The translations under genes were made by a program, and so were the position numbers. A DNA stretch of 64,000 bases from Longimicrobiales bacterium (lineage in GTDB: Bacteria > Gemmatimonadota > Gemmatimonadetes > Longimicrobiales > Gaopeijiaceae). Each line of letters opens with the position of its first letter. Positions within the stretch are counted from its first letter, which is position 1. The stretch covers positions 1 to 64,000 of the forward strand of contig CBDCNQ010000004.1 in NCBI GenBank assembly GCA_965219445.1. Direction: 5' to 3'. Below are positions 11,176 through 31,069 of the stretch, piece by piece. Below the pieces are notes generated by a model that was not told where the DNA came from, did no database searches, and saw nothing but the letters and a program-made list of their open reading frames with translations.

Positions 11176-12417
11176 TCATCCTGTGACCCTCGCTTCGATG
11201 CGGTCGATCGCGCCGCGGAAGGTGTCGGGTACGAGGTGCGCGTAGACCTGCTCGACGACCTGCGTGGTGTCACCGAGCAGGCGTGCTACGACGGTGAGGC
11301 TCACGCCGTCCTGCGCGAGCCACGATGCGAAGGTATGGCGTCCTGAGTGCAGCGTGAGGCCATCGCCCTGGGCGCCATACTTGATGCCCGCCCGCCGGAA
11401 CGCTTCTCGCACCCAGGTCGTGATGGTCACGGCGCCTATCGGCTCGTCGCGGCCCGCGGTCCGGATCAGGTATCGTTCTCCTGCGTAGCCTCTTTGGATG
11501 TGGTTATCGATGATTGCGGCAAGGCTCGGCGCGAGCGGTACGTCGCGCTCGCCGCGGCTCGTCTTCGGTCTCCAGGGCCAACGTCCCGCCCTGGACTGCA
11601 CGCGCAGAAGCGGGTAGTCGCCGTCGAGTGCCACGTCGGTCTCGGGCCTGAGATGGATGATCTCGCCCCTTCTGAGCCCGGCGAGGAACGCGAGGGCGAC
11701 GATGGCGCGCACGGGCGAGCCGGTCGTGGCCCGGTCGAGCTGCCGCCACTCCTCGGGCGTGAGGAACGAAAAGCGTGTGCGCCGCACCTCGGGCGTCTCG
11801 ACCTTCTTCCAGGGGTTCGAACGGACCAGTAGCTGCACGCCCTGCCGTTCAAACGCTTCGGCCTCCTCGGCCATGACCATGCTCCAGAGCGCGCCGCACA
11901 CGATCCGGCAGCCCTGCTGCGTGGCGGGCGCCCATGCGCCCCGGCCGTCGCGCTTGGCATGCAGGTACTCGCGCGCGTCGGAGACGGTGAGCTCTTCCAT
12001 GGGGAAGTCCACGCCGAGCTCGCCCGTGAGCGCTTCGAGATAGCCCCGGTACTTGTCACAGGTGCGCCGGCTTCGGGTAGCCTCCTTCATCCTCATGAAC
12101 CTCTGCATGGCGGGCCCGAGCCGTGGCGAGTCGGAGCCCATGCGCCTGAGCTTGGTGGCGTCGCCGTCCCTGAGCGCGGCCTGCGCGTCGGTGATGTGCA
12201 TGTCGCCCCTGCGGATCGCTTCGAGCACGCCCCAGTCGCCTCGGTCCATGAGCTGCACCAGCACCGCGTGCCGCTCGTATGCGACATCGGGATCGTCCGT
12301 CCTGAGCGCGACGGCCAGGCGTCCGCCACGGAAGCGCGGATGCCGGCGGTCGAAGTAAGCGCGCCCAGCGCGCCACATGAGACCCTTCGGGGCCCGCTTA
12401 CGCCGTCTGGGGCTCAC
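11176..12417 (-). CDS. int: Tyrosine integrase
   Basis: GLRRGE, HSGRH and YAH catalytic motifs; adjacent to attL. Confidence 0.93.
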   Translation of the reverse strand: MSPRRRKRAPKGLMWRAGRAYFDRRHPRFRGGRLAVALRTDDPDVAYERHAVLVQLMDRGDWGVLEAIRRGDMHITDAQAALRDGDATKLRRMGSDSPRLGPAMQRFMRMKEATRSRRTCDKYRGYLEALTGELGVDFPMEELTVSDAREYLHAKRDGRGAWAPATQQGCRIVCGALWSMVMAEEAEAFERQGVQLLVRSNPWKKVETPEVRRTRFSFLTPEEWRQLDRATTGSPVRAIVALAFLAGLRRGEIIHLRPETDVALDGDYPLLRVQSRAGRWPWRPKTSRGERDVPLAPSLAAIIDNHIQRGYAGERYLIRTAGRDEPIGAVTITTWVREAFRRAGIKYGAQGDGLTLHSGRHTFASWLAQDGVSLTVVARLLGDTTQVVEQVYAHLVPDTFRGAIDRIEARVTG

Positions 12418-16217: not shown

Positions 16218-16700
16218 GCCTCACCTCCGAAGATCCGCCGCCAGATCGTGTCGTCGGTTGCGTGGCTAAACTGCGCCGGACCGGCGATCCGCCGCGATTT
16301 GGCGATATGGCTGGGCTGCTCGGCGGGCCAGATCGTGCGCGTCCCGCCACCGATGCCCTTGCCGTCTTCCGACACCACGTCATAGCCGAGAAACAGCACA
16401 TGGTCGGCCCACTGAACGACCCGGTTGCGGATCGACGCCTTGCCCGAGCGCGGCCGCTGTAGATGCGGCTCGTAGCGAATCCAGTCGTCTCCGGTCGGAT
16501 TCGGTACGCTCTCGATGCAGTCATGCGCGATCAGGACCACGTTGCGGCCCGCCCGCACTTGCCGGTCCAGGTCCGCGAGCAACAGCAGAAACGTGTCGTA
16601 GACGTGCTGGTAGCCTTTGCCGAATCCGTAGCCCTCGATGCTGGAGACCGTCGCCCCTTTCTCGTGCTTCACGGTTTCGAGCGTGTGGGCGATCGCAAGC
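16214..16700 (-). pseudogene. Sak4/AAA_24-like ATPase, 5'-truncated
   Basis: SIEGYGFGKGY, VVLIAH, WADHVLF and HIAKSR motifs. The Walker A half is missing and the frame stops at ~16702. Confidence 0.75.
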
Positions 16701-16770
16701 TAGTACTTTTTCGTGCAACGTTTCACCAGCCGCTATCCCCTCGAAGCGGTGAACAGGGAGAGGGTGCCCA

Positions 16771-17172
16771 ATGACCGCAGCAATCTCTAGCGCATCCTTA
16801 GCCGTCTACACCTTTCTTTTGCCTATAGCCCAAGTGAGTCTGGTAGTCGCGGTGCTGATCCTTGTCCCGATGGCATTTTTTCAGGGCACCAAGAAACCAG
16901 CGGGCGTGGGTCTTCTTTGGGCATCCTACCTCTTGGGAGCAACCACCTGGACCCTCGGCGCGGCAATCACTTTTAGCATCTATAGTTGGTTGGGTCTGGC
17001 GGTGGGGATGTTGTTTTTCGGGGTGGGAGTTGTGGCACTCGCTATCGTTGGAAGTGTCTTCGTGATTAAGTCCGCCAGCATGGCTATTTCGCTAATCGTT
17101 ATGGCCATTTTAGTGTGGGGTTTTCGTGCTTGGGGGGTTGCCCTGATGATAGCGCTCCCAGGCGGCGAATAA
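16771..17172 (+). CDS. 4-TM membrane protein (moron-like)
   Basis: RBS GGAGAGG; hydrophobic; lower GC; opposite strand to the other phage genes. Confidence 0.7.
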   Translation: MTAAISSASLAVYTFLLPIAQVSLVVAVLILVPMAFFQGTKKPAGVGLLWASYLLGATTWTLGAAITFSIYSWLGLAVGMLFFGVGVVALAIVGSVFVIKSASMAISLIVMAILVWGFRAWGVALMIALPGGE

Positions 17173-17381
17173 AGGGGGCACCGTGTCTGGGGTGTATTGG
17201 GGAGGCGTCATCATCGTTGGCGGTGCCGCTTTTCTTCGGCACCTGGATTTATGCAGCGATGACCTACGGGGTGTTTCTCGGCATCGGGCTCGGATGGATT
17301 CCGACCATCGTTGTCGGAGTGGTGGCGGGGCTGGTTTGGCCGCTTTTCGCTCTCGTTGCGGTAGCCCCCAGCGGACCATAG
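17115..17381 (+). CDS. Small membrane protein (start uncertain)
   Basis: Hydrophobic C-terminal ~55 aa. Confidence 0.45.
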   Translation: MGFSCLGGCPDDSAPRRRIKGAPCLGCIGEASSSLAVPLFFGTWIYAAMTYGVFLGIGLGWIPTIVVGVVAGLVWPLFALVAVAPSGP

Positions 17382-17450
17382 GGCGGGGCTCAAAAAAATG
17401 GCGACTATACACTTGACGACACCCATCACAGGGTGCAAAAAAATATAAGG

Positions 17451-17491
17451 AAATAAGAAAAGGGGCCGCGCCGTTTCTGACGTGACCCCTT
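17451..17491 (-). terminator. Rho-independent terminator of the antisense sRNA/tRNA unit
   Basis: GGGGTCACGTC-loop-GGCGCGGCCCC followed by TTTTCTTATTT on the minus strand. Confidence 0.75.
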
Positions 17492-17525
17492 CAGTGTGGC
17501 AGAACCACACTCTAACTTCGCAAGT
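17455..17525 (-). ncRNA. Putative anti-tRNA small RNA (~70 nt)
   Basis: Begins ACUUGCGAAGUUAGAGUGU, the perfect complement of the tRNA segment at 17623-17641; has its own promoter and terminator. Confidence 0.7.
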
Positions 17526-17531
17526 ACCTAT

Positions 17532-17560
17532 AGTATCGGCGGAAAGCTGCTCCTGGTCAA
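17532..17560 (-). promoter_or_regulatory. sigma70 promoter of the antisense sRNA
   Basis: TTGACC-17 bp-GATACT; predicted +1 at 17525, the first antisense base. Confidence 0.65.
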
Positions 17561-17576
17561 GTAAGAATGCCAGCCG

Positions 17577-17663
17577 TGGTGCCCGGGGCGGGATTCGAAC
17601 CCGCACGACCCGAAGGCCACTAACTTGCGAAGTTAGAGTGTCTACCAGTTCCACCACCCGGGC
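17577..17663 (-). tRNA. tRNA with Leu-type body and Ala anticodon CGC (predicted mistranslating tRNA)
   Basis: GCCCGGG TG GTGGAACTGGTAGACAC T CTAAC-TTCGCAA-GTTAG TGGCCTTCGGGTCGT GCGGG-TTCGAAT-CCCGC CCCGGGC A CCA. All stems pair; long variable arm, A73, no G3:U70. Confidence 0.9.
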
Positions 17664-17739
17664 ACCTAAACAAAGCGGGCGTCGTCGTCGTCGACACAAC
17701 TCGCAAGCTATTCAGTCCGCGATGATGGCTGACCTATTG

Positions 17740-17768
17740 AGGCTAGATAAACCTGGGCTTGGGGTCAA
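17740..17768 (-). promoter_or_regulatory. sigma70 promoter of the tRNA
   Basis: TTGACC-17 bp-TAGCCT, giving a ~70-nt leader. Confidence 0.6.
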
Positions 17769-17775
17769 CCGACAT

Positions 17776-18459
17776 CTAGCGCACCACCCACACCACCGCG
17801 ACACCTGTACCGAGACCTCTCATGAAGCTCCCGACGTGCCCGAAGAAGCCGCTAGGCAGCGCGTCCCGGAGGAACCCGATCTCCTCTTCGTAGAGCCGGT
17901 TCGACTCGGCGAGGATGGCTTTCTCGGCTCGCTCGGTCGCCAGATTCCGTTCCAGCAAGACGATGGCGAACGAGTCTGCTTGATGGAGGGCCGTAGCCCC
18001 GAGTAGCTGTTCCCGGAACGCTTCGCGGACGCTCTGCTCCGCTGCCTGCTCCTCCCGGTGCTGCGCCTGAGCGATCTCGACCAACGGACGGAGCTCGGGA
18101 CGTACGACGGCATAGAGGCTGTCGTGGGTCGCGTCGAGGTCGGTGCCTGCCTGAGCGGCGCGCTCGGAGGCATCGGTCTCCTGTTGCTCGGCTTGCGCGA
18201 TCATCTCACGGGCCTGGACGCGCTCGATTCGTAGAGAATCCCGCACCTGTTCGAGCTCAAGCGAATCGGCACGGGTGCGCGCACTCGCGTCACGGAGTTG
18301 CACCTGGAGCTGTGCCTGATCTTCGGCCCGGTCGTCAGCAAGCGCTTTCGCCACGGCGAGATCGGACAGCGCGCCTTGGAGCCACCAGCCGAGGACGCCG
18401 AGCGCTACGATCATGATGAGCTCGCCGGGCAGACGAACGCGGGTGAGCCAGTCGTTCAT
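17776..18459 (-). CDS. Rz/i-spanin-like coiled-coil membrane protein
   Basis: N-terminal TM and long coiled coil; end of the lysis cassette. Confidence 0.55.
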   Translation of the reverse strand: MNDWLTRVRLPGELIMIVALGVLGWWLQGALSDLAVAKALADDRAEDQAQLQVQLRDASARTRADSLELEQVRDSLRIERVQAREMIAQAEQQETDASERAAQAGTDLDATHDSLYAVVRPELRPLVEIAQAQHREEQAAEQSVREAFREQLLGATALHQADSFAIVLLERNLATERAEKAILAESNRLYEEEIGFLRDALPSGFFGHVGSFMRGLGTGVAVVWVVR

Positions 18460-18914
18460 CGCGGCGCCAACGGTATTGGCCTGATCTCGCACTCTGCGAA
18501 GCGGGGGTCGTCATGATCACCACCACCGAGCAAATCGTGGATCGCTTCGTGGCTTACCACGACAGGGTCATTCACCGTGCGCCGGTCGAGCAGGATCTCG
18601 CGGGGCAGGGGAGCGGCCCAGCCTCCGAATTTTCGGCCTAGCGTCTCTACGTCGAGCAAAAAGTCCACGACCGACCAATTAATCGCGAAGAAGTCGCCTT
18701 CCAGACCCGTACACTCCTCCATCAGCGAATAGATGTAGGCGTGCATCGTGGTCGGATAGAACTGGATCCTGTTCCAGTAGCGCACCTCGGTCCAGCCCGT
18801 TTCGGTCGACGCCGAGGGGGGCGCCACGCGCAGCACGGGGGACGGCAGAGCAGATCCCGTGCAAGCAGCGAGCATGGACAGCGCGAGTCCGACGCAGAGG
18901 ATGCGCCGGATCAT
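18456..18914 (-). CDS. Phage lipoprotein with HExxH motif
   Basis: Lipobox LAAC; HEAIH. Confidence 0.6.
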   Translation of the reverse strand: MIRRILCVGLALSMLAACTGSALPSPVLRVAPPSASTETGWTEVRYWNRIQFYPTTMHAYIYSLMEECTGLEGDFFAINWSVVDFLLDVETLGRKFGGWAAPLPREILLDRRTVNDPVVVSHEAIHDLLGGGDHDDPRFAECEIRPIPLAPR

Positions 18915-19459
18915 GCCCTCGACACCTTGGGCAACAGCTGGCGGATGTCGTCGACGGACAGGATCGGGTTGTTCGGGTCGGTGCCTTCGGGATCAGTCTT
19001 GCGGCCGCGTGGCCAAGCTTCGCTGGAGTGGCCGACGATGCGCCACGTGTCTCTGAGGTTCCAGCCGTGTTTCTCGTAGTAGATGCGGCAGAGCAGGGCC
19101 ATGGTGAGCATCTGTAGCGGGGTGACGTCGTGTTTTCCGCTGGAAGCGATCGCGATGCCGTAGAACGCCGAGTTGGCGTCGCCGTAGTGGAGCCTGGCCG
19201 GGTCTGAGGGCCTACAGCGGCCCGCATGCCACGCCCGGGCGCTGTCGGGCGCTATGCGTACGTAGGAGCCGTCGTCGAGGATTAGGAGGTTGTAGCTCAC
19301 GTGGCAGCGCGGATCGCCGAACCACTGCATCGAGCCGCGGTCGGATCCGCTCCCGTCGTAGTGGAGAAGGATGCCCTGGCGGTCCTCGCGGAGCGTTCCG
19401 TAACGCTGGTTCAGGATCTCGCCCGTGAGCGTCGGCGTCCAGACGAGCTGCCCGGTCAT
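18911..19459 (-). CDS. N-acetylmuramoyl-L-alanine amidase (endolysin)
   Basis: ILLHY, AWHAG, IVGH and KTDP Amidase_2-type motifs. Confidence 0.88.
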   Translation of the reverse strand: MTGQLVWTPTLTGEILNQRYGTLREDRQGILLHYDGSGSDRGSMQWFGDPRCHVSYNLLILDDGSYVRIAPDSARAWHAGRCRPSDPARLHYGDANSAFYGIAIASSGKHDVTPLQMLTMALLCRIYYEKHGWNLRDTWRIVGHSSEAWPRGRKTDPEGTDPNNPILSVDDIRQLLPKVSRA

Positions 19460-19758
19460 CGCTCGTCGTCCTTGAACCGGTCGTCGGTGCCGGCGTTGCG
19501 GCGTGCGGCAGCCGCGACGGCCGCTGCGACACCGCCGAGCTGTGGGCCGACATACTGGGCGATCCGCGGCCCGGCGGCCCAAGCCAGCAGCCCCGTGCAG
19601 ACCGTTCCCATGAGTGCGTACGCGGGGCCGGGCACGTTCCAGGCCAGCGAGTCCAGCACGATCAGCGCACCGGCGAAGAGCAGCGCGCCGATCAGCAGCA
19701 ACCTTGCCGAGGATCTGGAGCCGCGCTCATCGTGGAGGAACCCCGGTTCCTGGCTCAT
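19456..19758 (-). CDS. Holin-like 2-TM protein
   Basis: Two TMs; directly upstream of the endolysin. Confidence 0.6.
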   Translation of the reverse strand: MSQEPGFLHDERGSRSSARLLLIGALLFAGALIVLDSLAWNVPGPAYALMGTVCTGLLAWAAGPRIAQYVGPQLGGVAAAVAAAARRNAGTDDRFKDDER

Positions 19759-20283
19759 GACCCGTTACTCCCGCCCAACCACGGCACTGACTTCATCCTG
19801 AGCTTCGCCGACTTGATGAAGAACTGTGCGTTACCCTGAAACGAGATCGCCTCCTCCCAGAACATCGCGACGGTGACCGTCATGATGAGCTTTCCGGCCG
19901 GATCCCAGCCGAGGATCTCGAAGGTCATGCCTTCGATGAACGCCGCCATGATGACCACGAGGAAGATCACGAGCAGCTTCAGGACCCCATTCCTGGCTTT
20001 GTCGGCGCGCAGCTTCACCTTTCGGATCCGCAATCGCACGTAGCACTCCGGTCGCCCAGTCGACGCCCCACGCGCCGAGCAGGAACCAGAACGGAATGCC
20101 GAACGCGCCCTGCATCTGCGCGAGCACGGCCACGAGCGCGCCCATCCCGACCTTCGGGACGAGCGAATGCGTGACGGTATCCTGGACGTAGTGGCCGAAA
20201 TAGACGAAGAACGACTGCGCGGTGTTGATCTCCTTGCTGCCGTCAATCGGTCCGACCCATGTTCCTTCGCCTAGAACGTACAT
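19755..20283 (-). pseudogene. Phage holin (holin_4_1-like) with a frameshift at ~20020
   Basis: DWATGVLRAIADPK continues in another frame as VKLRADKARNGVLKLL...EEAIS. Confidence 0.65.
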
Positions 20284-20395: not shown

Positions 20396-23300
20396 TCACC
20401 TCTCGGAGCGCCGTCGGGTGGTGTCCTGCCCAGCATTGCGCTGTCTCCGCTGCGCGTCTAAGAACAACAACTGACCGACGCGATTGGCACCGCCGGTCCC
20501 TGCCTGCTGCCCCGACGTCTCACGCCAATCCGGGGTGTAGCCGGCCAAGGGGTCCTCGTTGGGAAGGGAACCAATGCGGTCTATGCGGTTGGGTGTCTGT
20601 TTGCGCTCTTGCTCGCGGCGCGTGCGCTCGCGCTGTGTTTCCGCCCGGATCCGACCCACACGGAACGGCCCCCTGGCGGGTCGCCCCTCCTCACCGATCT
20701 CCTGGAGCGCGGCCCGGGCCAGCGCGTTCGCTTCGGTGCTCAACGTCCTACGATCATTCACCGAGGGTGTGAAGCGGCGCACGTAGGACAATGCCGTGAC
20801 GGCTTTTGATGCGTCCGCGAGCAGCAGGCGCTTCTCGCGCTGGACGGCGCTCTCTTCACGCACATTGGAGCTCTGAATCTTCTGAGCGGCTTCCAGCGCA
20901 TCGTACAGCTCGTCGATCGAGCGAGAGCGGGTCGTGCCACCGCGCACGAACAGGCGCCCGAATATGGGCGTATCGGCCAACTCGTTCTCGCGCTCGATGC
21001 CCGCCGCTCCAAGCCCGACGAGTTCTACCAAATCGGAGCCGACCGGCCCGAACATTCCCCTGATGCCGTGATCGATACGTCTGGGCGATACCTTGAATAT
21101 CTGGCCCATCGTGATCGCGGCTCGGCTCGTGAACTCGTTGAACTGTTCCTCAGCGGGAAGATTCTGTTGGCCACGCGGAACGATCGGCGTGTCGAAGAAC
21201 GTGTCTCGGTTCGCGCCTTGCTCGTAAATCTCCTCCAACCCCGGCGGCGTGAGGGGCGGCACCATCGTCTGAAGCGCGACTTTCATAAACGCGATCGCGC
21301 TCTTTCGATCGTTCAAATACCACGCATCGAGCAGCATCTCTGGGAACGCACTAAAGACGTAGCCGACCTCGAAACCTCGCGGGATCCGCACGAGCTCCTC
21401 ACGTCCATCCGGCAGTGTGACGGAGAAATGCCAGTGCAAGAACTTCTCGCGGGAGTCCATCTCCTTCCACCACTCTTCGTCCTTGTTCCGCCACCACAGG
21501 AGCAGTGTCGCGGCCGTGAGTTGGAGCCCACGTAGCGCGAATTTCTGCAGGTTTCGTTTCCCGGCACGCAGGTTCGCGCGCGGGCCCTGGATCGCGGCGT
21601 TGTGGAACGGCACCATGCGGTTCGCCGCACGGCTGAACTCGCCAGCGGCGGTGAAGTCGGTCGTCACCTGTTTGGCGGCGAGCAAGAGACGGAACGACTG
21701 ATCGACGGTCATCGGCTCGCCAGGCTGCCACCCGATTTCTGCGGACAACAGCTTGAGTTCGGCCACACGCGGCGCCGATTCAGGGGCCTGCACGAGGTCC
21801 CGATACCAGTCGAACCAATTCCTTGGATCGAGTGTGCGTGCTGTACGGCCGTGGAACAGCCGACGAGCGGCGCGACTGGCTTGTGGTAGGTCCTGGCCGA
21901 GCGGTTGCGCCATCTCGCCACCGAGCCGCACGAAGGCGTCCAGATATTCACTGCGCCGCCCGACGGTCCTGTCCAGCGCCGCATCGGTCATCGCACCGAG
22001 CCACGTAGCCAGCAGCCTTGGCCCGGCAGCCGACGTCTGTGTGTTCACCCACATCGTTTGTGCGTCGCGGATCGGATTCCACAGCAGACCGAACGATGCA
22101 CGGAGGCCGGTGGTGCCTGCCCTAAAGATTTCGGCGCTCTTGCCGAGCGTCGCCTCAAGGATTCCTAGGCCGGCGACTTGCGGCAAGCGGTAGACGTCGA
22201 GTGCCGAGAGCGCACCGAACAACTTGGCGTCTACCTGAAACCACCGGATTTTCTCGCCGTCCCGCAGCGGAACGATCGGATCGGCGCCACTCGGTCGGTC
22301 CTTGGGCACGAAGAAGGTGACCGCTTCGTTGAAAACTTCCAGCGTCTCATCATTGACGGGGCCCGGGTCTGTTTCGAGCCCGACGCCCTCGCGCGCGAGG
22401 CGCTTCTTGAGTTGGTCCAAGAGTTGACCGATCGTGCGTGTCGCACCCGGCACCATCTCGGGCGGCACCTCTTCGATCAGGCCGCCCATGCCTTCGATGC
22501 TGCTCAAGCGGATGATCTGGTCGATGACCATTCGGTGATGGGCAGCACGTAGGGTCGAGGACGCCTGCGAGATCATAACGGGGAACGGGTCTTTGATCCT
22601 GCGACCGCTGCCCTTGAGACGCTTCACCGGACTGCGAGTAGTCGCGCCTCCCTTCTGCGCTGCGCGGCCCCACAGATCGTCGATCTCATCGAACATCCGT
22701 TGCAGCGGCACGTAGTCGCCAGGATCCCGCTCGCGCACCTTCGAGACGATTTGACGGAACGAGGGCGACGCCTGAGCGGCGTAATTCAGCACCCCATCGT
22801 TCCACTCGTAAACGATTTGGGCGCCCTGCGCGAATCTGGGGTTTTCCAGTTCGGATATGATCTGTTCGGCATCGATGAGCGAGAGCCCTGGGTTGCGAGC
22901 GCCCTGTGGATCGTTCCACAACGCCCTGGCGCGCCTGGCCCATAGATAGATCGTGAAATCCTCGCGCTCTAAGGGCCGAATCATCGCCTCGATCGAGTTC
23001 AGCGGTTGACCCACCTTATTGCCAGCCAGGTCGATCATCGCGTTCTCGACCATGTAGCGTGTACGAGCGGTATGCGTCGTTCTGAGCGCCGAGAGCGTTA
23101 AGGATGGATCCTGTGACGGAGCCAGCGGACGTTCAAGCTTGCGCTGTGCCTCGGCCGAGAACTCAGCGATCGGCTGCGCCATATCGACGAGATTCTCCAT
23201 GCTGAAGAACCGCCTCACTCCTTTGCCGGCCCTCCCTATGCGCTCACGCAGACTGCCCGTGTCCGCCATGCTCGCCACCGCACGTTGCCGGCTGCCCTGA

Positions 23301-26107
23301 TCGCCGTAGCGCGTGGTAGCGTCCCGAGCCGATTCCATCGCCTTACGAACCTTCGGTTGACCGGCTAGAAACGAACCATCGAACCACTCCGCGAAGGTCG
23401 GGGCCACGCGCAAAGATTCTTCGTCCGACGTGATCCACGCCCGAACGAACTCGGCGAACCCTTCGCGCTTGTATCCACCAACGGGCTTGCTCTCGCCGTA
23501 CAGACGGAAACCGAGTTGCCTGAGCTCCCTCTGCATCTTCCCGGTAACGCCCGCTATGGAGCCTTTCCAAGGCCCACCCTTCGGCCAACCGTAGATAACT
23601 TTCTCGATCGCGTGCGCGACCTCGTGTGCTGCGGTCGGGATGTCGTTCGCCTCGCGCGTCCTGATAACCTCGGGGCGCACTTTGAAAATGCCGAGCGCAC
23701 GACGTTGTCCTATCCGACCACTACGCAGCGGTAGCGCGCGACCCGCCGCCTCGGTGATCTTGGCCATCGCGCCGATGACGGCCGGCGCCGACACGGGACC
23801 GCTCGCGGCTACGTCGACAGCCGGCGTCAGGCGTCCCTTCAGGCTCGGATAGATCGTAACCCGTTCGTCCTCGTCCACGAGCGGATCCGTCGGAGGTACG
23901 ATCCTCGCACTCGTCGGTACCGAACTCGCTGTGCCCGTGGCGGTGGGGGCAGGATAGAACTGTGTGCCGGCGGGACCGCCGAAATCGTCGGAGATGTCAC
24001 CCGACGCAGCCGGAACTTCTTCGTCGATCCCACGCGCTCGCGCCTCGCCGGCGTAAAGCGTGCGGCGCACAGCAGCAGTTGTAGAGCCCAGGTCGCTGAG
24101 TGCTTCCACCTCGGCACGAACAAGACGCTCGATAACCTCTGAGTCGGTTAGATCGGAAAGCTCAAGGAACTCGGCACGAACACCGACTGGCACGTTCCCG
24201 GCCCTGACGTATCGGTATGCGTCATCGAAATCGGGCAGCTCGATCTCACGACGACGGAGCTCGTTCTCGTACGCGACCCGACGATGCCCTGCTTGCGTCA
24301 GCCGGCCACGTGCGAACGAGCCTTTGCCGGTGCCCGCAACGCCCTTGATCCCGGCGTTATCGAACACGCGGATCCCCGGTCCCGCTTCGTTGGCCTCCGC
24401 CTCGGTCTCCGCAGACTGCCGCAGGGTCGCACGGTATCGGGCCGCAAGTTCCTCGTCGGTAAGACTCTTCGCTATCTGTGTGGCCTTCTCGAACACCGCG
24501 CCCGCGCCTGCCGGCCTTACGTCGTCGCTTGCGACCTCGCCCGCCCGCGGCCCAATCGCTTCGGCGACCGGGAGAGCGTCGTCCTGCGGGATTGATTCGA
24601 TCGGAACGCCAGAGTCGTCTAGCTTCACCTCAGGGCCAATAGTGATCTTGTCTGTGCGTTCCTGCGGGATCTGGACGTCACCTCTACGAGAGCTTGCACC
24701 GGCAGCCGAGGCACCCGCTACCGATCCGACCAGCGCACCGATGGCGCCCGCACCCTTCATGCGCTCACCGATGTCCCTCAGCGCTTCGGGATCCTTGGTC
24801 GCTACGAACTGCGTAGTGGCCTGGAATGCTTCCTGCACCGCTTCGGTGACGCCCTCAGCGATGAGCCCCGAGCCCGCACGGCGCGCGACGTTCGGGATGA
24901 GCTCCATGAATTTGCTACGGAAGAACGCCTGAGCGCCCGGCACGCGATCGAACAGGATCACGGCACCCGGGATCGCTTCCAGCACGGCGGAACCAAGGCC
25001 AACGACCGCCGCGACGCCGGCAGCCGTCCGTTCGGCCTCTTCGGCGCTCGCGCCCTGTCTGAGCGCCATCGCTTTCGTTTCCTCGAACGAGCCGCCGCCC
25101 TCAAGAACAAGGTTCGGGGCTGCGAACGCGGCGAGCCTGAGCGCTGGCGATCCCGGCACCGCGAGAGCGAGCCCAACCTGAGAGCCGAGCTGCAAGAACC
25201 CTTCGCCGCCACGGGCGAGCCACCAGCGTGGATTCGATGGGTCGAACGCGCCACCGGCTTGCACCGACAGACTCGGCGGGTTGCGTTCCTGGATCTCTTG
25301 CCCCGCGGACGATAATGAGCGCCCTGGGCGCTTGAGCGGGGGCACAACCTGCCCGATCGTTCGCAGCGTACCGCCTACACCCTCAGTGGCTTGTCCACCA
25401 AAACGCTTCGCGGTACGTGCCATCTCCGTACTGAGCGGTAGATCGGGCTTCAGTGCACCGGTTAGCTCCATGCCCGGTGGCGGAGCGTCCCCGAACTGTG
25501 GATCCCTTAGGCCCAGACGCCGATTGAACTCACGGCCTTGCTCCACGACTCTGCGCATCTGCTCGCCTAAGCGTTCGCGCTCACCTTCAGGCGCTTCGAC
25601 GGCCGGTGGAGTCCGAGCGATTGTTGCGTTTCGTAGGCTTACCGTGTTGTCGCGATCCGCCCGGATCTTTTCGCGCATGAGGTCGAGCGAGGTCGGTCCC
25701 GTGGGTTCCGGCGGCCTGGCAACCCTCGTCGCGTCAGCAGCCGAGTCGGGGGACACCCGCGTTTCCTTCAAGTCGCCCAGTGGGTCGGCGGCGGGCTGCG
25801 GACGAGTCGTAGGCAACGCCACCGCCGTGGCGTCTGCGGCGAGGTCCGGGGACACGGGACGAGGCTCCCTCCGGCCCAAGGTGGCTCGAAGCCTAGCACC
25901 AGCCCGCTGTAGTAGAGAGGGCTGCGGCTTGGCCTGCCGTTCACGCCAGTCGGGTGTATATCCCGCTAACGGGTCCCCGGCCTGTCGGCCCGATGCCTGC
26001 CGTTCACGCCAGTCGGGCGTATAGCCTGCGAGAGGATCCCCCGTCTGTTGCCCTACCTTTTCACGCCAGTCTGGGGTGTAGCCAGCAAGAGGATCGTCAG
26101 GATCCAT
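20396..26107 (-). CDS. Large polyvalent/internal virion protein (LPD38-like C-terminus)
   Basis: 1903 aa; C-terminal VRIPRGFE...ANRDTFFDTPIVP...VSPRRIDH pattern; lies before the lysis genes. Confidence 0.7.
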   Translation of the reverse strand: MDPDDPLAGYTPDWREKVGQQTGDPLAGYTPDWRERQASGRQAGDPLAGYTPDWRERQAKPQPSLLQRAGARLRATLGRREPRPVSPDLAADATAVALPTTRPQPAADPLGDLKETRVSPDSAADATRVARPPEPTGPTSLDLMREKIRADRDNTVSLRNATIARTPPAVEAPEGERERLGEQMRRVVEQGREFNRRLGLRDPQFGDAPPPGMELTGALKPDLPLSTEMARTAKRFGGQATEGVGGTLRTIGQVVPPLKRPGRSLSSAGQEIQERNPPSLSVQAGGAFDPSNPRWWLARGGEGFLQLGSQVGLALAVPGSPALRLAAFAAPNLVLEGGGSFEETKAMALRQGASAEEAERTAAGVAAVVGLGSAVLEAIPGAVILFDRVPGAQAFFRSKFMELIPNVARRAGSGLIAEGVTEAVQEAFQATTQFVATKDPEALRDIGERMKGAGAIGALVGSVAGASAAGASSRRGDVQIPQERTDKITIGPEVKLDDSGVPIESIPQDDALPVAEAIGPRAGEVASDDVRPAGAGAVFEKATQIAKSLTDEELAARYRATLRQSAETEAEANEAGPGIRVFDNAGIKGVAGTGKGSFARGRLTQAGHRRVAYENELRRREIELPDFDDAYRYVRAGNVPVGVRAEFLELSDLTDSEVIERLVRAEVEALSDLGSTTAAVRRTLYAGEARARGIDEEVPAASGDISDDFGGPAGTQFYPAPTATGTASSVPTSARIVPPTDPLVDEDERVTIYPSLKGRLTPAVDVAASGPVSAPAVIGAMAKITEAAGRALPLRSGRIGQRRALGIFKVRPEVIRTREANDIPTAAHEVAHAIEKVIYGWPKGGPWKGSIAGVTGKMQRELRQLGFRLYGESKPVGGYKREGFAEFVRAWITSDEESLRVAPTFAEWFDGSFLAGQPKVRKAMESARDATTRYGDQGSRQRAVASMADTGSLRERIGRAGKGVRRFFSMENLVDMAQPIAEFSAEAQRKLERPLAPSQDPSLTLSALRTTHTARTRYMVENAMIDLAGNKVGQPLNSIEAMIRPLEREDFTIYLWARRARALWNDPQGARNPGLSLIDAEQIISELENPRFAQGAQIVYEWNDGVLNYAAQASPSFRQIVSKVRERDPGDYVPLQRMFDEIDDLWGRAAQKGGATTRSPVKRLKGSGRRIKDPFPVMISQASSTLRAAHHRMVIDQIIRLSSIEGMGGLIEEVPPEMVPGATRTIGQLLDQLKKRLAREGVGLETDPGPVNDETLEVFNEAVTFFVPKDRPSGADPIVPLRDGEKIRWFQVDAKLFGALSALDVYRLPQVAGLGILEATLGKSAEIFRAGTTGLRASFGLLWNPIRDAQTMWVNTQTSAAGPRLLATWLGAMTDAALDRTVGRRSEYLDAFVRLGGEMAQPLGQDLPQASRAARRLFHGRTARTLDPRNWFDWYRDLVQAPESAPRVAELKLLSAEIGWQPGEPMTVDQSFRLLLAAKQVTTDFTAAGEFSRAANRMVPFHNAAIQGPRANLRAGKRNLQKFALRGLQLTAATLLLWWRNKDEEWWKEMDSREKFLHWHFSVTLPDGREELVRIPRGFEVGYVFSAFPEMLLDAWYLNDRKSAIAFMKVALQTMVPPLTPPGLEEIYEQGANRDTFFDTPIVPRGQQNLPAEEQFNEFTSRAAITMGQIFKVSPRRIDHGIRGMFGPVGSDLVELVGLGAAGIERENELADTPIFGRLFVRGGTTRSRSIDELYDALEAAQKIQSSNVREESAVQREKRLLLADASKAVTALSYVRRFTPSVNDRRTLSTEANALARAALQEIGEEGRPARGPFRVGRIRAETQRERTRREQERKQTPNRIDRIGSLPNEDPLAGYTPDWRETSGQQAGTGGANRVGQLLFLDAQRRQRNAGQDTTRRRSER

Positions 26108-29563: not shown

Positions 29564-31069
29564 TCATACGCCCTCGGCTACCCGGGTCCAGCGAGGTCCT
29601 CGCTGTTCGTCGGGCCAACCCAGGCCGTCCGAGCCGGGCTGCGGCAGGAGCTTGTGGCCCGCATCGTCCGGATGCTTCGGTGGCCCCTTCGGGCGCTCGA
29701 CGGCCGGCGTACGAGACATGAGCCAGCTGGTGATGCCGTCGTAGCCGTGATCGTCGGAGTCCGTCGCTACGTCCTCGCTGTTCTTATCGTCGAGCGGCAG
29801 AGCGGGCAGCGTGCGGATCAGATACTTACAGCTCGGGTGCACCTGCAGCTTCGGCAGCCCCCACGGGTAGACCTCGCCGTCGTCCGCTCGCTTGTACCTC
29901 AGGTAGTCGTGCAACATCTGCTTCTTGGTGTCGCGCGAGCCAGCACCCTTGGGCGGGTTGATGAAGGGCACGGGGAACTTCGAGACCGCCGCGTTCATGC
30001 CGGCCTGCAGCTTCTCCAGGATCGTCGGGCCGCCGTCGGCCACGGCCGGCGTATCGATCGCCGTCCATTCTGGCCGTGGATAGCGCATCAGCACCTGGCC
30101 CCACGTGTAGCCGACCGAGTAAGGGTCGGTCTCCTTGAACAGGTACTCGTGACGCACGAGGCTGCGCTCGGGGCCGCTCGCCATGAGGTACATGCAGCCC
30201 TGAGCCGTGTGGCCCCAGTCGCCGCCCGCGCTCCAGCGGTATTTGCCGCGGTCGGCACCGCGTTCGGGTTCGTATTCGGCTACGTGCACGTCACGGTTCC
30301 ACTCGGCGAAGGCCATGCCAACGAAGTGGTCCCAGTTGCCCTCGACCCATGCCTTGCGGAGGTTCTCGCCCAGCGTATTGAGCTCCTCCCAGTATTCCTT
30401 GGTCAGGTACGGGTTGTCCGTCGGCAGTGAGCGGATGAAGCAGAACTCATGAGCGAGCGGCGTCAGTCGTTCGTAGTCGCCCGTATAGTCTTGCTCGATC
30501 CACAGCGCCTTGACCCACAGGTGCCCGGCCGAGCCCGGATTCGTCGCGCCCCAGAAGAACGTGTCCGTGATCCTCGGCCAGCGCAGCGAGCCCCTGAGCG
30601 TGTCGAAGATCGAGATGTCGGCGCTCTTCGTCAGCTCCTCGACGGCGACGCCCGCGAACTCGGCCGACTGGTACTTCTCAGGCTTGTCGAGATTGCGGAG
30701 TAAGATGGCGCCGCCGCCGAAGCGCTCGTGCAGGTAGAAGCCAAGGCCCTCGTCCTTCGTGTCGGCGAGCCTGCCGAGCCACTCGGGGAACTCGGCTTTG
30801 ATCTTCGTCACCTGCCGGTCCTTGAGCGTCGGATAGTCCTCGCTGAACAATCCGACACGCACGCCTTTGTGGCCCGCAAGCGCCCACAGGATGAGACGAT
30901 AGAGTAGACCCCACCTCAGCAGCCGGCTCTTGCCGCCGCCGCGAGCTCCACCGTAGAGCATGTAGCGATGCTGCTTCGCCTCTTTCAGGAATTCGAGCTG
31001 GCGCGGGATCGGCTTGAACAGCGCCCAGAAGTCGAAGCCGCCGTCCTTCAAGGCCCTAGCGCTATTCAT
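29564..31069 (-). CDS. terL: Terminase large subunit
   Basis: GGARGGGKS Walker A, VEE Walker B, ATNPG, and DWG and DHGYD nuclease motifs. Confidence 0.93.
   Translation of the reverse strand: MNSARALKDGGFDFWALFKPIPRQLEFLKEAKQHRYMLYGGARGGGKSRLLRWGLLYRLILWALAGHKGVRVGLFSEDYPTLKDRQVTKIKAEFPEWLGRLADTKDEGLGFYLHERFGGGAILLRNLDKPEKYQSAEFAGVAVEELTKSADISIFDTLRGSLRWPRITDTFFWGATNPGSAGHLWVKALWIEQDYTGDYERLTPLAHEFCFIRSLPTDNPYLTKEYWEELNTLGENLRKAWVEGNWDHFVGMAFAEWNRDVHVAEYEPERGADRGKYRWSAGGDWGHTAQGCMYLMASGPERSLVRHEYLFKETDPYSVGYTWGQVLMRYPRPEWTAIDTPAVADGGPTILEKLQAGMNAAVSKFPVPFINPPKGAGSRDTKKQMLHDYLRYKRADDGEVYPWGLPKLQVHPSCKYLIRTLPALPLDDKNSEDVATDSDDHGYDGITSWLMSRTPAVERPKGPPKHPDDAGHKLLPQPGSDGLGWPDEQRGPRWTRVAEGV

Follow-up and report, generated by a model that had tools for sequence, protein, structure and literature searches.

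A conserved pre-tRNA 5′ leader complementary to the anticodon arm of a leucine-type tRNA in a Longimicrobiales prophage

Type I toxin-antitoxin loci such as hok/sok and tisB/istR-1 produce primary toxin transcripts that are inhibited by folding back on themselves. We analyzed a locus with a comparable layout in the genome of a Longimicrobiales bacterium (assembly GCA_965219445.1, contig CBDCNQ010000004.1, positions 1 to 64,000; this 64,000 nucleotide (nt) stretch is referred to as the window). A prophage transfer RNA (tRNA) gene is preceded by a putative 5′ leader and followed by a small RNA unit, and both are complementary to the anticodon arm of the tRNA. The complementarity between leader and arm is real and beyond chance. 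It lies in the same place in every family member measured and, as judged from family alignments, covaries with the tRNA.

The locus resembles hok/sok and tisB/istR-1 in having a cis element that would mask a functional site and an adjacent small antisense RNA with its own promoter, and in being a small mobile unit of prophages and chromosomes. It differs from them in that the candidate toxin is a tRNA with no open reading frame, rather than a messenger RNA (mRNA) for a membrane peptide. The mask is the 5′ leader, which would pair with the 5′ half of the tRNA. RNase P and refolding would bring about activation, instead of 3′ trimming or cleavage of the 5′ untranslated region, and the antisense RNA is arranged in tandem on the same strand, whereas in hok/sok and tisB/istR-1 it overlaps on the opposite strand. 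In place of the small-protein toxin from a regulated mRNA that characterizes hok/sok-like systems, we found an Rfam tRNA and conservation of RNA pairing, including G:U pairs. Complementarities that could serve as the other two type I features, an antisense RNA antitoxin and a cis fold-back of the primary transcript, are present and covary. The small RNA seed forms a predicted mirror hairpin that faces its target loop, as in the kissing loops of CopA/CopT, RNA I/RNA II and Sok/hok, but the target is a folded tRNA arm here and an mRNA or primer there.

Type VIII systems, e.g., CreTA and SdsR/RyeA, combine an RNA toxin with an RNA antitoxin, and CreT acts through a rare tRNA. The present locus is similar in that both partners would be RNA and translation the likely target. 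In contrast to type VIII, the RNA toxin would be a decoding tRNA acting by missense insertion, the antitoxin is not CRISPR RNA-like, and there is an extra cis lock. Toxin-antitoxin classes I-VIII are named in the abstract of PMC11869752. Body identity and anticodon also disagree in the allo-tRNAs of Acidobacteria and others (main text of PMC5389517) and in the tRNAProX of Streptomyces (main text of PMC11415595). Allo-tRNAs have 8/4 or 9/3 acceptor/T branches and serine identity (PMC5389517), whereas the tRNAs described here have leucine-type features and the canonical 7/5 branch, not the 12 base pair (bp) branch split 8/4 or 9/3. The main texts of PMC5389517 and PMC11415595 do not contain the word "antisense" and describe no cis or trans antisense partner. 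Our full-text literature searches gave no case in which an antisense RNA or a masking leader accompanies a tRNA gene.

Complementarity of leader and anticodon arm in the prophage module

The module is encoded on the reverse strand, and its features are as follows.

17740-17768 (−): promoter-like site for the pre-tRNA, TTGACC (17768-17763), 17 nt spacer, TAGCCT (17745-17740), recognized by eye
17664-17733 (−): putative pre-tRNA 5′ leader, 70 nt if the start is 17733
17710-17693 (−): leader core UAGCUUGCGA-GUU-GUGUC, an imperfect antisense in cis that covers the D-stem 3′ strand as well as the anticodon arm
17577-17663 (−): type II tRNA, 87 nt, called "tRNA-Ala" CGC by ARAGORN; Rfam tRNA model RF00005, 55.5 bits (threshold 29)
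17621-17642 (−): common target of the leader core and the small RNA seed, D-stem 3′ strand and anticodon stem-loop (GACACUCUAACUUCGCAAGUUA)
17532-17560 (−): sigma-70-type promoter of the small RNA, TTGACC-17-GATACT, the sole consensus promoter called in 16800-18400
17451-17526 (−): small RNA, consisting of seed, hairpin and terminator
17525-17507 (−): seed, 19 nt, perfect antisense to tRNA positions 23-41
17511-17493 (−): small RNA hairpin, whose 3′ arm pairs with tRNA 8-17 (10 bp, 2 G:U)
17491-17451 (−): small RNA terminator

An earlier note, made from the sequence of this DNA alone, had proposed that the leader carries a second, imperfect antisense to the anticodon arm. The pairing holds throughout. 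All 18 leader:arm pairs are Watson-Crick or G:U, arranged as 10 bp (one G:U), 3 bp and 5 bp, and they join leader positions 17710-17693 to raw tRNA positions 43-34, 32-30 and 26-22 (window 17621-17642). An inverted-repeat search lists the 10 nt leader core separately, at 90% complementarity. The duplex between the 70 nt leader and the 23 nt arm has a predicted energy of −22.2 kcal/mol (RNAduplex), a value reached by 0/2000 dinucleotide shuffles (mean −11.6, standard deviation 2.4, minimum −21.9) and by 0/5000 random genomic 70-mers (minimum −22.0). Among all 55 tRNAs of the genome, the duplex is only 7th by raw energy, since the prophage tRNA arm is AU-rich and the others have a higher GC content. 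When each leader is compared to its own shuffles, the prophage tRNA is first of the 55 with a z-score of −4.52, and the runner-up is at −2.77.

A "second" antisense implies a first, which is present as a perfect 19 nt inverted repeat (17507-17525 / 17623-17641) formed by the seed of the small RNA and the arm. The small RNA unit begins 17 nt past the tRNA on the same strand. The seed-arm duplex has an energy of −32.6 to −34.0 kcal/mol (z −8.4), and an antisense of at least 11 nt within 400 nt was found for 1/55 tRNAs of the genome. The seed is able to adopt a hairpin that mirrors the anticodon arm and presents UUGCGAA to the loop UUCGCAA.

The tRNA itself combines two identities. Its anticodon loop, UUCGCAA, is the same as in the host's genuine tRNA-Ala(CGC), and the anticodon CGC reads GCG, an Ala codon. 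Its body is leucine-type, with a long variable arm (4 bp), discriminator A73, an encoded CCA, and C3:G70. A73, a long variable arm and a leucine-type D arm are determinants of bacterial tRNA-Leu. All three are present, including a D arm (GUGGNGGAANUGGUAGAC / GUGGUGGAACUGGUAGAC) common to the prophage tRNA and the host Leu tRNAs; a leucine anticodon (NAG or YAA) is absent. The closest host tRNA is Leu(CAA), at 69% identity, and the nearest relatives in other genomes are tRNA-Leu throughout. G3:U70 is the determinant for AlaRS. It is absent in the window, and pair 3:70 is G:U in 0/14 family members (GC in 7, CG in 5, UG in 1, UA in 1); A73 is found in 14/14. Such genes are annotated as tRNA-Ala by anticodon despite a leucine-type body. 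The host encodes the genuine tRNA-Ala(CGC) and Leu tRNAs with anticodons TAG, TAA (twice), CAG, GAG and CAA. Per 1000 codons, long host frames contain 38 GCG and prophage genes 46. If LeuRS charges the prophage tRNA, Leu would be inserted at a very common Ala codon (~4% of codons). The 3′ CCA is encoded in the prophage tRNA gene, but not in the aligned host Leu, Ala, Ser and Tyr tRNA genes.

A family of modules with conserved leaders

Relatives of the module were found with a pattern that combines the leucine-type D arm with the loop TTCGCAA. The pattern scan gave 19 metagenome loci, which contain 21 tRNA-like modules, and 3 of 401 sampled genomes of the phylum matched, genome G000 included. 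The other two, of the same class, yielded one intact module and one decayed (L166). After four duplicates were dropped and L167 was added, 19 non-redundant modules remained, with 17 distinct anticodon stems. Each intact module comprises a leader and a leucine-type tRNA, together with a small RNA unit that has a TTGAC-type promoter, seed, hairpin and terminator. At L162 and L164 there are tandem modules, in which the neighbor has the anticodon GGC (Ala) or CAC (Val). Three of 22 modules are decayed (L147, L152 and L166 (G423:C82)). In these, the tRNA is intact as far as the anticodon loop, beyond which it diverges and lacks a T arm; the 3′ half of the tRNA is lost and the small RNA-like antisense unit is kept.

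Twelve members score 44-54 bits against the Rfam tRNA model, and the cloverleaf of 14 members shows compensatory changes at 15/27 pairs, with a 7 bp acceptor stem and a 5 bp T stem; judging from these changes, the cloverleaf is under selection. The seed-arm duplexes have z-scores of −5.4 to −9.7 in 14/14 scored units with an intact tRNA, and the seed's best target (rank 1) is its own arm in 14/15. A TTGAC hexamer and a −10-like hexamer occur at the same place in the relatives (TTGAC in 12/13 printed units, by eye), and the consensus small RNA hairpin is GCGUGGC..GCCACGC. The metagenome loci lie between housekeeping genes and are non-syntenic, with neighbors that include MutS, TonB, Fpg, HSP20, GNAT, PP2C, S9 peptidase, amylase, MnmA and a class-V aminotransferase. 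We did not find a protein toxin: among the frames of the metagenome loci (stop-to-stop, at least 80 amino acids; 82 of 152 scanned, hand-chosen), Pfam matches were to the flanking housekeeping genes only.

Other searches did not extend the family. DNA similarity to phage records was limited to the tRNA body (3 records, all tRNA-Leu-like), and the same search of 61 related genomes gave ordinary tRNA-Leu genes only. The exact 19-mer had 0 matches in viral contigs and 0 in metagenome contigs, and the CGC-requiring pattern had 0 loci in viral contigs. Relatives sought via the neighboring gene for a 238 amino acid protein were absent from viral contigs; six were found in the protein database, all from one source, and a search of genome contigs gave one weak match.

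A tRNA of this kind need not be a toxin. It could be used for regulated mistranslation, to let the phage take over host translation, or in a non-ribosomal process that draws on Leu-tRNA, with the leader as an ordinary regulatory fold that adjusts its output. Natural missense-suppressor tRNAs of soil bacteria, the allo-tRNAs and tRNAProX, are precedents in the main texts of PMC5389517 and PMC11415595. Viral-contig tRNAs of at least 85 nt also combine the leucine-type D arm with other anticodons and have no nearby antisense; an antisense of at least 11 nt within 500 nt was found for 0/29 pattern-matching viral-contig tRNAs, some of which are ordinary (77-79 nt). We regard a non-toxin role as rather improbable. 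The antisense RNA at every intact module, the diversified stems and the tandem arrays fit selfish toxin-antitoxin-like units better, as do the scattered housekeeping neighborhoods and the decayed copies that keep the small RNA-like unit without a full tRNA.

The leader is conserved in position and in pairing. The best leader-arm duplex lies at −69..−29 from the tRNA start in 18/18 modules measured, and the leader core is at −68..−34 in all of these. In a MAFFT alignment the core reads [about 6 stem-specific nt]-TTG(C/T)G(A/G)-[3-6 nt]-G(C/T)GTC, and the rest of the leader is barely alignable between subfamilies; the core pattern could be anchored in 17/19 modules, all except L159 and L161. Leaders bind their own arm 3.9 kcal/mol better on average than other arms (0/20000 permutations). 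With the register fixed by the conserved motif TTGNGA, the 6 nt that precede it form 4.29/6 pairs with the 3′ stem strand of the cognate arm and 2.82/6 with non-cognate arms (n = 17; 0/50000 permutations reach the observed value). RNAalifold, run on the unfitted MAFFT alignment, places GYGUC:GACRC in the consensus, with 18/18 modules paired at four positions and 17/18 at the fifth, and with a double change from CG to UA in the window and L153. The consensus also pairs the leader with tRNA positions 1-4 and 8-10. A 24-pair fold-back, which we drew on the unfitted alignment, has 83.1% of its cells paired (shuffled 77.3%, 0/500; slid 32.6-48.8%), 27 doubly changed cells as compared to 14.7 in shuffles (0/500), and a covariation score of 0.246 as compared to 0.168 (0/500). 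The leader thus mirrors the whole 5′ half of the tRNA, i.e., the acceptor 5′ strand, U8-G10, the D-stem 3′ strand and the anticodon arm. The arm antisense of the earlier note is the strongest part of this mirror, and according to the family alignment the antisense extends more widely than the arm alone.

These data bear on two other explanations. The leader may be an evolutionary relic. Leader and small RNA would both go back to partial copies of the tRNA 5′ half in inverted orientation, and the copy in the leader would be functionless and in decay. A relic would be imperfect everywhere, as the leader is, and could be near chance in some members (L160, L161) and ignore anticodon changes in others (L162b, L164). 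The small RNA is antisense to tRNA 8-17 besides 23-41, as would be a duplicated half. When the window's leader is locally aligned with its small RNA gene, the shared sequence is ACT..ATAG..CTTGCG.AGTT..GTGT, but an equal or better score is obtained in 13% of shuffles, and paralogy of the two by this alignment was rejected as not significant. A neutral relic should, however, have lost the core, which is kept between subfamilies whose leaders are otherwise unalignable. The core also covaries with 17 distinct stems and tolerates G:U replacements as RNA pairing does. We therefore consider a relic unlikely.

The repeats could also act in DNA, with the copies of the arm serving as recombination sites (an integrase core or an invertase site). 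Integrases reportedly often use the symmetric anticodon-arm DNA of tRNA genes, as Williams is said to have described in 2002, and the prophage has an integrase (11176-12417). At alignment pair 41:134, the middle anticodon position, U:G in 9 rows alternates with C:G in 8, which points to RNA pairing on this strand. Pairs kept through such T:G changes are non-complementary in DNA. Furthermore, in the relatives shown, the small RNA unit comes with a promoter and a terminator of its own, and the same architecture is found away from integrases, beside housekeeping genes. No inversion or excision between 17507-17525 and 17623-17641 was reported in the sequencing contigs compared. A role of the repeats in DNA is highly improbable.

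Alternative folds of the precursor and a possible leader lock

The earlier note had further proposed that the primary transcript folds into an inert conformer. The helix itself stands, since it occurs in predicted nascent minimum free energy (MFE) folds, is conserved and covaries; in the full-length precursor of the window, the helix is not part of the best predicted fold. For transcripts ending at tRNA positions 44, 48, 60 and 70, the MFE fold holds exactly the noted leader helix. At full length the tRNA-type fold (−61.9 kcal/mol) is better than the leader-helix fold (−56.8 kcal/mol) by 5.1 kcal/mol, which would make the leader conformer a kinetic trap instead of the ground state. Nascent folds with at least 13 leader-arm pairs are predicted for 13/18 modules. 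Since the fold-back and the cloverleaf each covary, two mutually exclusive folds would both be conserved, and the structural half of the precursor idea is supported by covariation in the alignment. Its functional side is what we infer: the conformer would be inert, RNase P would cleave later, the tRNA would be toxic, and hok and tisB would be parallels.

In our preferred reading, the conserved imperfect antisense of the leader folds back, by prediction, onto the RNA while it is being made, which would delay both cloverleaf formation and maturation by RNase P; we put its probability at roughly 0.5. LeuRS would charge the tRNA, which would put Leu at GCG codons and hence be harmful. During transcription, while the 3′ half is unmade, the leader would pair with the acceptor 5′ strand, the D-stem strand and the anticodon arm. 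The folded-back precursor would be neither a substrate for RNase P nor a decoder. Once the 3′ half is made, either the cloverleaf would win slowly, or the better-matching small RNA would displace the leader from the arm. In trans, the small RNA would neutralize the mature tRNA, probably beginning with a loop-loop contact between UUGCGAA and UUCGCAA. The leader would then be a first, built-in lock that gives the antidote a time window and keeps the Leu-for-Ala decoder silent. The three parts together could form a protein-free toxin-antitoxin-like module, carried as a prophage moron behind the lysis genes.

Several points weigh against the leader acting as such a lock. The leader helix has a probability of <5% in the full-length ensemble, where the tRNA-type fold is favored by the 5.1 kcal/mol given above, and at least 13 leader-arm pairs occur in the full-length fold of only 6/14 intact modules. 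Ordinary host tRNAs reach at least 13 pairs in 8/54 nascent folds (15%) and in 2/54 full-length folds. Single-module leader z-scores are modest (+0.2 to −3.7), and the leaders of L160 and L161 are at chance (z −0.4 and +0.2). With a free register, the variable stem positions show no cognate preference (7.21 as compared to 7.13; 9746/20000 permutations reach the sum). The leaders of L162b (GGC) and L164 (CAC) keep GCG, whereas their small RNAs follow the anticodon. The modules are related, so that the permutation counts overstate their independence, and the 24-pair structure was defined after the sequences had been seen. The prevalence of CGC in the family is by design, as the pattern demanded it. 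Avoidance or recoding of GCG was not seen in the prophage genes (46 per 1000, as compared to 38 per 1000 in the host). Lastly, a 315 nt contig from another study (X5) matches 17634-17770 with 10 differences (93% identity); those placed are at 17680, 17682, 17685, 17687 and 17739, i.e., four in the spacer and none in the core (17693-17710), but X5 is a single relative that says little, and its other five differences are near the match ends and unplaced. DNA contigs of the window's own study are identical.

The energies also bear on how leader and small RNA would share the arm. Pairing of the small RNA gains −15.0 kcal/mol with the pre-tRNA and −19.9 kcal/mol with the mature tRNA, so that thermodynamically it beats the leader. 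One alternative is that the leader is a co-transcribed second antitoxin. RNase P would cut normally, on a pseudoknotted or refolded precursor, and the leader fragment, made once per tRNA, would mask the arm in trans until degraded. The leader-arm duplex of −22.2 kcal/mol and a favorable joint fold of free leader and mature tRNA speak for this, as does the possibility that leader-arm pairing and the acceptor stem coexist, which they could do only as a pseudoknot, a structure that nested folding cannot assess. The gain in trans is small, though, at just 4.5 kcal/mol, and the family leader also pairs with tRNA 1-4, which is incompatible with an RNase P substrate. We find a second antitoxin quite unlikely.

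Alternatively, the leader could be a hand-over scaffold that holds the arm open for strand displacement by the small RNA, or its long imperfect hairpin could admit a double-strand RNase that controls how much precursor there is. Its bulges (UCU and U) and mismatches leave toeholds, several anticodon stems in the family carry mismatches of their own, and on the precursor the small RNA is favored by 15 kcal/mol. The leader, however, covers the anticodon loop, the natural first contact for the small RNA loop UUGCGAA, and we judge both versions improbable.

Returning to the lock, a wider proposal can be made tentatively, and we hold it with less confidence than the fold-back itself. The modules may be protein-free toxin-antitoxin or abortive-infection units whose toxin is a leucine-accepting tRNA that reads a very common Ala or Val codon. 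A cis leader and a trans kissing-loop small RNA would restrain it, hypervariable stems would keep the pairs private, and the units would have spread through soil bacteria and onto a prophage. If this is true, selfish or defensive elements would poison cells in a new manner, through deliberate tRNA miscoding, and pre-tRNA leaders, usually deemed disposable, would gain a regulatory role as built-in masks. The family would offer an RNA with two natural states, fold-back and cloverleaf, each backed by covariation, as well as orthogonal tRNA/antisense pairs that are directly testable.

Promoters, prophage context and other observations

The promoter-like site upstream of the leader implies a predicted start near 17733; the consensus scan left it uncalled, because its −10 matches only 3/6. 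In L153, L159 and L161 a TATAYT −10 is found at a similar distance, −87..−82 from the tRNA (by eye). In one subfamily (L150, L158, L160, L164 and L165), a conserved GGTTAY-N21-CAWSTT occurs upstream of the leaders, between about −125 and −80 relative to the tRNA start. The motif does not match the sigma-70 consensus; it could mark a promoter of a different type or a site where a regulator binds. Two candidates within the leader were rejected. An independent terminator called by the scan (hairpin 17697-17679 followed by a T run) was dismissed because, as we read them, the four X5 substitutions break the hairpin and because relatives have no such hairpin and T run between core and tRNA (by eye). 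A promoter with TTGCGA as −35 has no conserved −10 at the proper spacing in the window or in the relatives (by eye). At its other end, the leader's final GGU pairs with the ACC of the 3′ end and lengthens the acceptor stem in the predicted fold (p > 0.99).

Rfam gave three matches in 16500-18500 at E up to 1, namely tRNA, mascRNA (20.1 bits) and YrlA. No Rfam family, T-box and RtT included, matched the leader or the small RNA in the window at E up to 1, and in the loci of 11 relatives tRNA alone was matched at E up to 0.1. The YrlA / Y RNA-like match (RF02553; 17514-17631, −) scores 19.8 bits as compared to 69 for membership, with an E of 0.52. In this weak match, the arm/seed duplex takes the place of the Y RNA stem, and the T arm that of its tRNA-like domain.

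The prophage occupies ~11 to 31 kilobases (kb) of the window. Besides a DnaN-like gene and a Sak4-like gene, it includes the following.

11176-12417: integrase
17776-18492: 238 amino acid coiled-coil membrane protein
18911-19582: amidase
19755-20246: holin
20396-26107 (−): 1903 amino acid protein with an LPD38 "large polyvalent protein" domain (Pfam 100.6 bits)
29564-31069: terminase

On the same strand as the lysis genes, the RNA module follows them directly, as is typical of morons. The LPD38 protein is located where a tape-measure gene would be expected. In G006, a genome of the same genus, there are three copies of the 238 amino acid lysis-region gene (L023, L024 and L025; 81-83% identity). 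Their homology stops ~95-140 nt past the gene and then the flanks differ, and 0/3 have the tRNA. Flanks of this kind are as expected for the ends of a multi-copy, possibly transposable prophage.

Further small RNA units with the same promoter motif follow the first in L161 (~990-1054) and L153 (~1010-1054). The second unit of L161 has a seed for another arm (loop reading CTAGG), and no matching tRNA lies in its 1.6 kb. ARAGORN also called three tRNAs of 92-94 nt in G000 (C4:529983-530074, C5:178968-179060 and C5:1021013-1021106; Gly-CCC, Arg-ACG and Ser-CGA). These have no nearby antisense and may be false calls. In viral contigs, tRNAs of 85-91 nt with the leucine-type D arm have the anticodons Asn (GTT), Asp, Pro, Gly, Thr, His and Ala (TGC); they are found at L027, L034, L039, L044, L053, L056, L057, L063, L069, L071, L091, L095 and L097. 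A mismatch between body and anticodon in type II tRNAs may be common in phages.

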